A stretch of 64,000 nt of DNA from the NCBI RefSeq assembly GCF_018350175.1, contig NC_058386.1, positions 6,820,001 through 6,884,000 on the forward strand. The letters run 5' to 3'. The DNA comes from Felis catus (lineage: Eukaryota). Below the pieces are notes generated by a model, which had not been told where the DNA came from, searched no databases, and worked only from the letters and a program-made list of their open reading frames with translations. Below, piece after piece: positions 31,101 through 37,100 of the stretch (its first letter is position 1; the number at the start of each line of letters is the position of its first letter). Made by a program: the position numbers and the translations under genes.

Positions 31101-34100
31101 TGCAAGAAAGATGAAAAGTGGTCAAAATCACAAGTATTGAGAAAAATACAGACTTCTGAGTGCCAACAGATTCCCGAATTGTGGGAGAAAATTGTGGGCA
31201 ACGGAAGGAAAGAAGGACTTGTGAGAGCAATAAAGTATTGTGGGAATGACAGCGGATCATGGAAGAGAAAGGGCAACTGTGGGAGACTGTAAAACAAACT
31301 CTAGGAAAACTGTTTTGTGGGACAGATTAGGAATGTGGGGGGGACAACGGATTATAGGAGAAAAATAATTAGATTGTGGGAGAGGTAAGCAATTGTGAGA
31401 CCAAATAAATTAACAAGGAAACAAAAGGCAACACGATATAAAACAATCACCAAGGAAAATGGAGATTTGTGGCAAACAAAAAAGACACCAGGATTGTGAA
31501 AGAAAAGAAGGAATTTTGAGGGAAAAAAAGAGTATTGTGGGAGAGACAGGGAATTGTGAGAAAAACATATAGGCTCATGGGGGAGAGAAGGAAATTTGGG
31601 GAGACAGTTATGAGAACAAGGAATTATAGGAGAAACACGAAATTGTGTGACAAAATATCGTAGGGAAAGGAATTAGGAAAATAAAACATTATGCAAGAGT
31701 GGAAAAATGTGGAATACACAACTTTGCTACCAATGAAACTATGAAGAATAGAGAACTGTTGAGCCAATCGAGAAGAGGCAGAATGTGATTTGTGTGGGAA
31801 TGACAAGGGATCACAGGAATTGTTGGAGAAAAAAAGAAACTGGGAAAAATTGTGGGAGGATAGAGAGCTGTGGGAAAAGGACTGGATTGCAGGGGAGCTA
31901 GGGAATGGTGGGAGGAGGAACTGGCTGTACTAGAAGTGGGGAACCGTTGCAGAAATTATAAGGATTATAACTGGATTAGAAGGAAAGCAATAGGTTCTCA
32001 GGGAGGTGAGGACTAGAGGTCAGCAGGAAAAGGGCAGAGAGTGGGGGAGAAGCAACGGATTATGAGACAGGCCAAGAATGGGAGAGGAGCAATGGATTGT
32101 GGGAGAAGCCAAGATGGGAAAGGATTGTGTAGAGTTCGTTAACGGTGGTGAAGCAAGGCGCTGTGGGAAAAGCAATGTATTCTGGGAAAGTCCAAGATGG
32201 CGGAGAAGCAAAGGATTGTAGGAGGGGTCAATATGGCAGAGAAGCAAAAGATTCTGGTACAGTCCGTTAACGGTGGCTAGGCAATGAATACTGGGAAAAG
32301 CAATGGGTTGTGGCAGAGACCAAGATGGCGGAGAAACAAAGGATTGTGAGAGAAGCCAAGATGATGGAGAAGCAAAGGATTCTGGTAGAGTCCGTTAGCA
32401 GCTAGGCAATGAACTGTGGGAAGAGCAATGGATCATAAGAAGGGCCAAGATGGCGGAGAAGCAATGAACTGTGGGAGAAGGAATGGATTGTGGGAAAGGT
32501 CAATGGCGGAGAAGCAAAGGATTGTGGGAGAGTTAACGGTGGTTAAGCAAAGCACTGTGGGAAAAGCTATGTATTCTGGTAAGGGCCAAGATGGCGGAGA
32601 AACACAGGATTGTGGGAGAAACCAAGATGGCGGAGATGCAATGAACTGTGGGAGAAGCAATGGATTGAGGGAGGGGCCAAGATGGTGGAAAGGCAAAGGA
32701 CTGTGGGAGAGTCCGTTAACGGTGCAGCAAAGCACTGTGGGATCAGCAATGTATTCTGGGAAGGGCCAACATGGCAGCGAAGCAAAGGATTGTGGGAGAG
32801 TCCGTTGATGGTAGCTCAGCAAAGCACTGTGGGAAAAGCAATGTATTCTGGGAAGGGCCAAGATGGCAGAGAAGCAATGGACTGTGGGAGAAGCAATGGC
32901 TTGTGGGAGAAGCCATGATGGCGGAGAAACAAAGGATTGTGGGAAAGTCTGTTAACAGCAGTTAAGCAAAGCACTGTGGGACAAGCAATGTATTCTGGGA
33001 AGGGCCAAGGTGGTGGAGAAGCAAAGGATTCTGGTTGAGTCCATTAATGGCAGCTAGGCAATGAACTGTGGGAAAAGCAATGGATTGTGGGAGAAGTCAA
33101 GATGGTGGAGAAGTAATGAACGATGGGAGAAGCAATGGATTGTGGGAAGGCCAATGGTGAAAAAGCAAAGGACTGTGGGAAAGTCTGTTAACGGCATTCA
33201 GCAAAGCACTATGGGAAAGGCAATGTATTGTGGGAAGGGCCAAGATGGCGGAGAAGCAATGGACTGTGGGAGAAGCCAAGACGGCGGAGAAGCAAAGGAT
33301 TCTGGTAGAGTCCGTTAACGGCAGCTAGGAAATGAACTGTGGGAAAAGCAGTGGATTGTGGGAGAAGTCAAGATGGCGGAGAAGCAATGAACTGTGGGAG
33401 AAGCAATGGGTTGTGGGAAAAGTCAAGATGGTGGAGAAGTAATGAACTGTGGGAGAAGCAATGGATTGTGGGAAGTGCCAATGGCGGAGAAGCAAAGGAT
33501 TGTGGGACACTCCGTTAACGGTTCAGCAAAGCACTGTGGGAAAAGCAATGTATTGTGGGAAAGGCCAAGATGGCGGAGAAGCAATGGACTGTGGGAGAAG
33601 CAATGGGTTGGGGGGAAGTCAAGATGGTGGAGAAGTAATGAACTGTGGGAGAAGCAATGGATTGTGGGAAGGGCCAAAGGCCGAGAAGCAAAGGACTGTG
33701 GGAGAGTGTTAACGGCTGCTCAGCAAAGCACTGTGGGAAAAACAATGTATTCTGGGAAGGGCCAACATGGCAGAAAAGCCATGAACTCTGGGAGAAGCAA
33801 TGGGTTGTGGGAGAAATCAAGATGGCAGAGAAGCAAAGCACTGTGGGAAAAGCAATGTATTGTGGGAAGGGCCAAGATGGTGGAAAAGCAATGGATTGTG
33901 GGAAAGCCAATGCTGAAGAAGCAAAGGACTGTGGGACACTCCGTTAACGGCTGTTCAGCAAAGCACTGTGGGAAAAACACTGTATTCTGGGAAGGGCCAA
34001 CATGGCAGAAAAGCCATGAACTCTGGGAGAAGCAATGGGTTGTGGGAGAAGTCAAGATGGCAGAGAAGCAAAGCACTGTGGGAAAAGCAATGTATTGTGG

Positions 34101-37100
34101 GAAGGGCCAAGATGGCGGAAAAGCAATGGATTGTGGGAAGGCCAATGGTGAAGAAGCAAAGGACTGTGGGACACTCCATTAACGGCTGTTCAGCAAAGCA
34201 CTGTGGGAAAAGCAATGTATTGTGGGAAGGGCCAAGATGGCGGAAAAGCAATGGATTGTGGGAAGGCCAATGGTGAAGAAGCAAAGGACTGTGGGACACT
34301 CCGTTAACGGCTGTTCAGCAAAGCACTGTGGGAAAAGCAATGTATTGTGGGAAGGGCCAATGGCGGAGAAGCAAAGGACTGTGGGAGAGTGTTAACGGCT
34401 GTTCAGCAAAGCACTGTGGGAAAAGCAATGTATTGTGGGAAGGGCCAAGATGGCGGAGAAGCAATGGACTGTGGGAGAAGCAATGGGTTGTGGGAAGGGC
34501 CAAGATGGTGGAAAAGCAATGGATTGTGGGAAAGCCAATGCTGAAGAAGCAAAGGACTGTGGGACACTCCGTTAACGGCTGTTCAGCAAAGCACTGTGGG
34601 AAAAGCAATGTATTGTGGGAAGGGCCAAGATGGTGGAAAAGCAATGGATTGTGGGAAAGCCAATGCTGAAGAAGCAAAGGACTGTGGGACACTCCGTTAA
34701 CGGCTGTTCAGCAAAGCACTGTGGGAAAAACACTGTATTCTGGGAAGGGCCAACATGGCAGAAAAGCCATGAACTCTGGGAGAAGCAATGGGTTGTGGGA
34801 GAAGTCAAGATGGTGGAGAAGCAATGAACTGTGGGAAAAGCAATGTATTGTGGGAAGGGCCAAGATGGCGGAGAAGCAATGGACTGTGGGAGAAGCCAAG
34901 ACGGCGGAGAAGCAAAGGATTCTGGTAGAGTCCGTTAACGGCAACTAGGAAATGAACTGTGGGAAAAGCAGTGGATTGTGGGAGAAGTCAAGATGGCGGA
35001 GAAGCAATGAACTGTGGGAGAAGCAATGGATTGTGGGAAGGGCCAATGGCGGAGAAGCAAAGGATTGTGGGAGAGTGTTATCGGCTGCTCAGCAAAGCAC
35101 TGTGGGAAAAGCAATGTATTGTGGGAAGGGCCAAGATGGCGGAAAAGCAATGGATTGTGGGAAGGCCAATGGCGAAGAAGCAAAGGACTGTGGGACACTC
35201 CATTAACGGCAGTTCAGCAAAGCACTGTGGGAAAAGCAATGTATTGTGGGAAGGGCCAAGATGGCGGAAAAGCAATGGATTGTGGGAAGGCCAATGGTGA
35301 AGAAGCAAAGGACTGTGGGACACTCCGTTAATGGCAGTTCAGCAAAGCACTGTGGGAGAAGCAATGGATTGTGGGAAGGGCCAATGGCGGAGAAGCAAAG
35401 GATTGTGGGACACTCCGTTAATGGTTCAGCAAAGCACTGTGGGAAAAGCAATGTATTGTGGGAAGGGCCAAGATGGCGGAGAAGCAATGGACTGTGGGAG
35501 AAGCAATGGGTTGTGGGAGAAGTCAAGATGGTGGAGAAGTAATGAACTGTGGGAGAAGCAATGGATTGTGGGAAGGGCCAATGGCGGAGAAGCAAAGGAT
35601 TGTGGGAGAGTGTTAACGGCTGCTCAGCAAAGCACTGTGGGAAAAACAATGTATTCTGGGAAGGGCCAACATGGCAGAAAAGCCATGAACTGTGGGAGAA
35701 GCAATGGGTTGTGGGAGAAGTCAAGATGGTGGAGAAGTAATGAACTGTGGGAAAAGCAATGTATTGTGGGAAGGGCCAAGATGGCAGAAAAGCCATGAAC
35801 TGTGGGAGAAGCAATGGGTTGTGGGATAAGATGGCAGAGAAGCAAAGCACTGTGGGAAACGCAATGTATTCTGGGAAGGGCCAACATGGCGGAGAAGCAA
35901 TGGACTGTGGGAGTAGCCAAGATGGCGGAGAAGCAATGAACTTGGGAGAAGCAATGGATTGAGGGAAGGGCCATGATGGCAGAGAAGCAAAGGATTGTGG
36001 GAGAAGTCAAGCTAGCAGAGAAGCAAAGGATTTGGTAAAGTCTTAACGGCAGTTAAGCAAAGCACTGTGGGACAAGCAATGTATTCTGGGAAGGCCCAAG
36101 ATGGTGGAGAAGTAATGGACTGTGGGAGAAGCGATGGGTTGTGGGAGAAGCCAAGATGGTGGAGAAGCAAAGGATCATGGGAGAAACCAAGGGTTCTGGC
36201 AATGAACTGTGGGAGAAGCAATGGATTGTGGGAAGGGCCAAGATGGCGGAGAAGCAATGAACGGGTGGGAGAAACAATGGGCTGTGGGAGAAGTTAGATA
36301 GCACAGAAGCAATGGATTGTGGGAATGGCCAAGATGGCAGAGAAGCAAAGGATTCTGGTAAAGTCCGCTAAAGGCGGCTAGGCAATGAACTGTGGAAAAA
36401 GCAACGGATTACGGGAAGGGTCAGTAATGGCGGAGAAGCAAGGGACTTGGGGAGAATGAAAGGATTGTGGGAGAAGTTGGTAATGGTGGTGAAGCAGTAG
36501 ACTCAGAGAAGCAAGGGACTGTGGGAAAGGCCAAGATGGCAAGAAGCAATGAACTGTGGGAGAAGCAAGGGGTTGTGGGAGAAGTAACGGATGGCTTAAT
36601 GCATATGGAAAGAACGAATAACCGCATTTAAAAATTTTCTGGGGTTCCTAAGACAGAAACCAACCAAGTTTAGGTTTGTGAGAAGTCCCATTTTTCTTAA
36701 CTTTTAGTCCCGAGGCAAATTTCAATTCCTTGTGAAGATATTTTACATGACACTGTCGTAAGAAATTACACACAGATCCCCTCAATGGAAACTTGCTACA
36801 GTCACAAAACATGATCATCAAATCAATTCTCCCACACCAGGTAGTCCTCTAAGCAAACCTACAGTCTGTACTTAAAAGCCTTATGTAGGCCTTTGGGGAC
36901 ACAGATAAAATGCAAGCTCTTTAGCAGAATCTACAAAAGTCCTTCATCATCTGTTCCCAGGCTGCCTCTCCGGATCCGGAAAACCCATGACACCATGTCG
37001 TGCTGAGGCCACCCCAAACCACATGTAAACATTCTGCTCTGTATCTCTGGCCTTTCTCCTCTCCCATTCAGGTCTCCTGTGCAACACCACGTCTGAACAT

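Follow-up and report, generated by a model that had tools for sequence, protein, structure and literature searches.

The 64,000-nucleotide stretch of the cat genome analysed here (G000:C47:6820001-6884000, the window, within which feature positions are counted) carries a tandem array of a short motif between the converging 3' ends of TBL1X and GPR143. The question it raises is whether this motif is a site for ZNF143 (Staf), as the original prediction proposed, a Notch-responsive RBPJ site, which that prediction had placed inside the same core, or no working factor site at all. The answer to which we give slightly better than an even chance is that the array is a single-locus complex minisatellite with a ZNF143-site core, likely grown by unequal exchange, and that it would form a dense island of ZNF143/ZNF76 binding, with no demonstrated effect on the neighbouring genes.

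The young array occupies positions 32051..36580 (4.5 kb, 50% GC), where a fuzzy parse allowing up to four mismatches finds 153 copies of the 17-bp core AGCAAWGNAYTSTGGGA, all on the + strand; on the - strand each reads as an SBS1-type (Staf-binding site 1) ZNF143/ZNF76 site. Exact matches number 84, and 40 cores differ at one position, 18 at two and 11 at three or four, which puts 124 of the 153 within one mismatch. A copy number of the order of a hundred, in one orientation, had been proposed for 32090..36560. The four core variants quoted at the time occur 15, 13, 17 and 6 times (51 in all) on the + strand, never on the - strand and not once in 100 dinucleotide shuffles, so both statements hold. 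Cores follow one another mostly at 19 or 33-37 bp and are arranged in higher-order blocks of 55, 125, 235 and 360-393 bp. Between them lie 152 linkers, comprising 55 of 0-3 bp, 48 of 19 bp and YY1 type, 26 palindromic, 15 of CCAAT type and 8 unclassified. Head-to-tail variant units of 10-60 bp, higher-order blocks and diverged edges are all present, as in complex minisatellites. Mismatches per core average 0-0.8 in the middle of the array against 1.5-2.0 at both edges; a homogeneous centre with diverged edges is the usual mark of turnover by unequal exchange, which likely operated here.

One DNA search of the genome and four patterns derived from the array place it at a single locus. A dispersed family was considered and rejected, the matches off the locus being eight L1 5' ends and one other place; all these counts are lower bounds. 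No second field of cores was seen in the 38 neighbouring 10-kb stretches at 6.30-7.26 Mb. Array words were present at 0.67-0.72 of the sampled words (about 70%) in 14 runs of the same organism from six studies, of which P1, P2, P3 and P6 are DNA-based and P4 and P5 of unstated kind, and one of which is possibly the window's own source. Because the array words recur across these studies, an assembly artefact is unlikely; short-read contigs here denote the presence of array words only. Two further candidates were rejected. The two longest stop-free frames of the array (263 and 267 codons) gave no Pfam match at E 0.1, which speaks against coding sequence, and a G-quadruplex array was dismissed since no canonical four-tract motif occurs and G4Hunter reaches 1.2 in 1.8% of windows.

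The core was scored against native sites of the same genome. These were 54 SBS2-type sites anchored on ACTACA..TCCCA (all 24 matches of one pattern and the first 30 of 57 of another), of which the 28 in a CpG-island-like context, presumed to be bound promoter sites, were kept and 26 dropped. The matrix was built on positions 8-18, which the TCCCA anchor does not fix. The lower quartile of the native scores was reached by 124 of 135 TCCCA sites in the array compared with 13 of 167 elsewhere in the window, and the native median by 28 of 135 compared with 1 of 167; only 2 of 5000 column-shuffled matrices scored the array as well. As in SBS1 sites, TCCCA stands at positions 2-6 of the 18-bp site in 130 of the 153 cores, and the 3' half resembles that of native sites (C12 in 151, G16 in 143 and C17 in 143 of 153). 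Both features are found together in 123 cores, the outcome of the count and scoring of core variants proposed with the original prediction. Five polymorphic core positions (1, 7, 9, 11 and 13) avoid eight key positions, these being our own choice, with p ~0.03. The claim that the core fits the Staf consensus at all but the last position was too strong: a single mismatch to the quoted consensus is seen in 19 of 153 cores and the median is 3, the same as in the 28 native promoter-type sites.

Published peaks offer a further comparison. The commonest core (GGAT) shares 16 bases with the motif called at the ZNF143 peak of the human TAF6 promoter in four cell lines, and the ZNF667 peak carries the GGAC form (Table S4, PMC3627581). 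By their sequence, with no ACTACA extension in the commonest 5' flanks, the cores are predicted to be of the SBS1 type, and the ZNF143/Staf reading of the core is supported, its positions 8-18 matching the promoter sites of the genome. The cores likely bind ZNF143/ZNF76, because repeat-borne sites outside promoters, those of MLT1J retroelements, are bound elsewhere (PMC3627581).

Several observations weigh against this reading. Since the copies share a single founder, the statistics amount to a test of one core, not of 153, and the comparison sites are presumed to be bound, while binding of the array in cat is predicted from sequence. The cores lack the ACTACA extension, which marks the strongest ZNF143 peaks (PMC3627581): among the 12 most frequent 5' extensions, together accounting for 104 of the 135 sites, none has ACTACAN directly 5' of TTCCCA (SBS2/THAP11). 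Array cores end in GCT, and native sites mostly have G there (16 of 28). The GCAC, GTAT and GAAC core types, three of the five variants searched, do not appear in the human promoter-peak Table S4 of PMC3627581. Motifs in B2 SINEs (short interspersed nuclear elements) are unbound, so motifs in repeats can stay empty.

These points lead to a rather improbable alternative, namely that the array is a neutral methylated minisatellite, unbound in vivo, whose ZNF143 likeness is an accident of one founding unit. The non-independence of the copies and the decay of their CpGs (described below) agree with it, as do amplified variants that break TCCCA (23 of 153 cores), an L1-like piece that supplies part of the 5' half of the core, and the published B2 motif pairs. 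However, the likeness that so few column shuffles could equal spans 11 positions beyond the anchor, the common variants fall at tolerant positions, and an older repeat field beside the array shows the same tendency towards the SBS matrix at positions other than its anchor (equalled by 1 of 5000 random offsets). It should moreover be hard to keep some 120 CpG-free sites empty within 4.5 kb.

The original prediction had also recognized an RBPJ site within the core. The strict site YGTGRGAA is present in 58 of the 153 cores and missing from the other 95, so the claim stands for a minority of copies; TGTGGGAA occurs 58 times in the array against 0.9 in dinucleotide shuffles. All 58 strict cores fall within the 123 that keep ZNF143 features, and the common variants that break the RBPJ site mostly keep the ZNF143 site. 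That the two motifs overlap, as had been pointed out, is borne out by PMC3627581, where TTCCCA is embedded in both SBS1 and SBS2 and RBPJ binds both, SBS2 better, exclusively of ZNF143. Because it is built into every SBS and its binding excludes that of ZNF143, the RBPJ core provides no independent evidence. The Ikaros core that had been named is likewise there, with 71 matches, and like the 10 STAT-type matches these are sub-words of the same core rather than sites apart from it.

The paired Notch-dimer site (SPS) consists of two RBPJ sites head to head, 15-17 bp apart. No RBPJ site was found on the opposite strand of the array and there are no head-to-head pairs, so such paired sites cannot form. 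We consider it highly improbable that the array is a Notch-response element at which RBPJ binds with NCoR/SMRT or Notch and feeds back on TBL1X. Such an element would draw on the 58 strict sites, on the shift of SBS1 and SBS2 probes by RBPJ in vitro and on the co-occurrence of ICN1 and ZNF143 peaks in T-cell acute lymphoblastic leukaemia (T-ALL) cells (PMC3627581). Yet the overlap of RBPJ and ZNF143 is common to every SBS, the strict site is missing from most cores, and the SBS2 form that RBPJ prefers (PMC3627581) was not seen among the commonest 5' extensions of the array. Nothing here supports the feedback on TBL1X that had been imagined. Both genes have the array on their 3' side, with 38 kb between it and the first coding exon of GPR143, and looping is unaffected by loss of ZNF143 (PMC11687419, which also describes an antibody cross-reaction with CTCF), most of whose peaks are at promoters. 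The first exon of TBL1X was not located; in the 100 kb before the window there is one strong CpG-island-like stretch, 3.5 kb left of the window start. The Notch link is likely a by-product of the ZNF143 motif.

Not mentioned in the original prediction, and taken up now, are the three linker types (YY1, MYB and CCAAT), the older field next to the array, the decay of CpGs and the pseudoautosomal position. The 48 YY1-type linkers (19 bp, positions 32105..36545, + strand) include 18 with a perfect CAAGATGGCGG. The 26 palindromic linkers (32260..36380, no strand assigned) carry a CCGTTAACGG-type palindrome, perfect in 9, which we take to read as two MYB-type YAACKG sites. There is also a loose likeness between this linker and a segment close to where the local SINEs begin, with 11 of 14 bases agreeing for one variant. 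The 15 shortened CCAAT linkers (32496..35590, + strand) likely are a 2-bp deletion form of the YY1 linker; 9 of them fit RRCCAATSR, presumably the NF-Y motif.

The YY1 linker together with the preceding GGGA matches the start of mammalian L1 elements. Outside the array, eight genome matches to the core-plus-linker pattern are the 5' ends of one dispersed family, and two of the eight, followed downstream, lead to L1 ORF1 (open reading frame 1), endonuclease or reverse-transcriptase domains. Compared with the 5' ends of this full-length L1 family, the 36-bp unit is identical at 27 of 32 positions. Nearly every mammalian L1 starts with the consensus G2-6(A/C)G2AGNCAAGATGGCGGA (PMC5381506), which the unit also fits. 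Nevertheless, the L1 matches were picked with the array's own pattern, and the part left unselected gives only p ~0.02; for this reason an L1 origin of the YY1 element is probable but not proven.

The CpG of the YY1 linker has become TG or CA in 26 of the 48 copies, whereas most neighbouring positions are altered in no more than 2 of 48; the CpGs of the palindromic linker have decayed in the same way. The observed-to-expected ratio of CpG is 0.36 in the array against about 0.6 to its left. This pattern points to germline methylation of the array. CpG occurs in only 7 of the 153 cores, and since the other 146 are CpG-free, methylation would leave the ZNF143 sites themselves unaltered.

Motifs for ZNF143, YY1 and NF-Y together give the array a promoter look, which favours genuine function over passivity and so counts against our preferred reading. 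The main rival, which we regard as unlikely, is that the array works as a promoter or as something like one, the male germline being the most plausible setting. ZNF143, NF-Y and A-MYB would open the array, and + strand transcripts, either long non-coding RNAs or precursors of PIWI-interacting RNAs (piRNAs), would begin at the oriented YY1 sites. ZNF143, YY1 and NFY are three of the ten initiation patterns in the Puffin promoter model, and YY1 sets the strand (10.1101/2023.06.27.546584); an SBS by itself suffices for reporter activity (review, PMC7154149), and MYB motifs are a feature of regulatory elements at pachytene (PMC10060231). All oriented motifs of the array point one way, and the transcriptome of a second organism (run X20) contains 0.07 of the array words, as a count of words only. 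The CpG decay of both linker types, however, indicates a methylated germline history. The right flank of the array, the only part covered by this weak test, drew 0, 0, 4 and 0 reads or contigs from four RNA runs, namely one contig set and about 1% of each of three single-cell runs, with the tissue unstated. In a single founding linker, a MYB motif of 6 bp or a palindrome of 10 bp can arise by chance, and a simple deletion turns the YY1 linker into the CCAAT form.

To the left of the young array, an older and decayed field with an AYTGTGGGA core extends over 27745..32050 on the + strand, cut by SINEs (~28321-28755 and ~30340-30750) and an L1 3' fragment (~29020-30085). It holds 69 AYTGTGGGA-like anchors in 2389 bp of non-insert sequence, compared with 8.6 in shuffles, the segment ends having been set by eye; their spacing is mostly 17-19 bp. 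The lower quartile of the native sites is reached by 6 of its 36 TCCCA sites. As the older field has the same core, the core predates the young array.

The neighbours of the array are those that had been named. On the left, WD40 exons run along the + strand and presumably belong to TBL1X, a name based on the gene order and the protein sequence; GPR143, on the right, is encoded by the - strand. The last coding exon and presumed 3' untranslated region (UTR) of TBL1X span 18610..22070 (+ strand, read from the sequence), with the stop codon at 18634-18636 and a presumed AATAAA poly(A) signal at 22047, some 10 kb left of the array. The last coding exon and presumed 3' UTR of GPR143 lie at 49350..50828 on the - strand, with the 3' end near there, 13 kb from the array, and its first coding exon is outside the window (G000:C47:6894116-6894385). 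The SINEs of the window we take to be of felid type. The last TBL1X intron contains an isolated single SBS-like site, CTCCCACAATGCGCAG, at 18067-18084. Over the 3' part of TBL1X (window positions 1-27700 and G000:C47:6720001-6820000) the observed-to-expected ratio of CpG is 0.52-0.68, higher than at 6.30-6.55 Mb (0.20-0.42) and than in most stretches right of the array. On that side, a 5'-truncated L1 (part of ORF2) occupies 39350..44720 on the + strand. Within it the 3' part of ORF2 seems to occur twice in succession (~42000-42990 and ~43130-44700), perhaps through insertion of a younger copy into an older one, and it also contains several SINEs and long stretches of A. The idea that the array is the 5' UTR of this element was rejected, since 2.8 kb of other sequence separates the two and the element begins within ORF2.

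The last exons of SHROOM2 lie at 7.068-7.079 Mb, and the carnivore pseudoautosomal boundary has been put at the SHROOM2 end (PMC3759724). By the published carnivore maps, therefore, the array would belong to the part common to X and Y, some 220 kb distal to the 3' exons of SHROOM2. No step in base composition was seen at the end of SHROOM2, and the pseudoautosomal position of the array thus rests on the literature.

Such a position would suit a cis-element for X-Y recombination, similar to the mo-2 arrays of mouse, in which open promoter-like chromatin near the boundary draws break-forming proteins. In the mouse region, mo-2 arrays act as a cis determinant of break formation (10.1101/536136), and the turnover of the cat array is ongoing. 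Even so, we judge this role very unlikely. The mouse unit is a GC-rich 31-mer that forms arrays of about 20 kb and is also found at the ends of autosomes (10.1101/536136), which differs from the cat array in unit size, GC content, array size and genomic spread, the comparison being one of descriptions only; what the two share is a minisatellite array located in a pseudoautosomal region. A composition scan of the neighbouring stretches showed no peak of GC or CpG at the array. The carnivore region should also need less help, because it measures about 6.6 Mb against 0.7 Mb in mouse (PMC3759724), and a recombination role here would be predicted from position.

Among known systems, the SBS1/SBS2 sites of ZNF143 share with the array the 18-bp TTCCCA...C...GC site, the embedded RBPJ core and a level of mismatch equal to that of the genome's promoter sites. 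They occur, however, one to a few per promoter and mostly in CpG islands (PMC3627581), whereas the array has about 120 in tandem, CpG-poor, between two gene ends and without the ACTACA extension. MLT1J elements likewise carry ZNF143 sites outside promoters, but these are dispersed SBS2 sites (PMC3627581) in contrast to the tandem, single-locus SBS1 sites of the cat. The terminal YY1 element of the L1 5' end (PMC5381506) is carried nearly intact and in one orientation by the 36-bp unit; in the array, no further L1 5' UTR follows and the element is repeated 48 times between SBS cores.

DXZ4 (CTCF/YY1) and the Peg3 YY1 repeats are tandem repeats with clustered factor sites, X-linked or locus-specific like the cat array, but have kilobase units or CpG-island, allele-specific methylation. 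Elsewhere in the genome, SBS2 sites cluster at G000:C39:8.4-11.9 Mb, several of them about 10 kb apart, as we would expect for a zinc-finger gene cluster.

A literature search that left most subscription papers beyond reach found no description of this array or of a ZNF143-site minisatellite, nor, within the same reach, an array of the DXZ4 or Peg3 type built on a ZNF143 site. The main text of PMC8662614 (felid DXZ4) does not name TBL1X or GPR143. Human TBL1X, TBL1Y, GPR143 and SHROOM2 are absent from eight of the nine supplementary files of PMC3627581; in Table S4 all peaks lie at most 2 kb from a transcription start site (TSS), and it is therefore uninformative on the human intergenic region. 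The array is a tandem repeat of factor motifs, of a known kind, unusual in unit and density and with a putative function.

The favoured reading, a minisatellite likely bound by ZNF143/ZNF76, suggests the following history. An old GA-rich repeat of 17-19 bp with an AYTGTGGGA core would have been present by the time several SINEs and L1s inserted. A full SBS-like core at the right end of this repeat may have become fused with a YY1 element, which probably corresponds to the first 21-32 bases of an L1, and with a palindromic linker. The joined units would then have multiplied into higher-order blocks, likely aided by the obligatory X-Y exchange of the pseudoautosomal region. CpG-free cores would stay unaltered by methylation while the CpG-bearing YY1 and MYB-type linkers erode in a methylated germline, and RBPJ could hold about 40% of cores in Notch-high cells, competing with ZNF143 as at any SBS.

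A bolder version, to which we assign a low probability, is that of a selected, lineage-refreshed array of promoter-making motifs (ZNF143, L1-captured YY1, NF-Y and MYB) near the carnivore pseudoautosomal boundary, which would open spermatocyte chromatin as a germline promoter or an organiser of X-Y exchange.

If the older field predates the SINE and L1 insertions, its counterparts are expected in other carnivores. If bound, the array would bring more than 100 ZNF143 sites together at one locus, compared with one to a few per promoter, and would be a natural test both of a massed promoter-proximal activator far from promoters and of titration by copy number. It also suggests how the start of an L1 may come to be reused as a tandem array of YY1 sites. 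If active in spermatocytes, it would provide a non-mouse case for the positioning of X-Y exchange.

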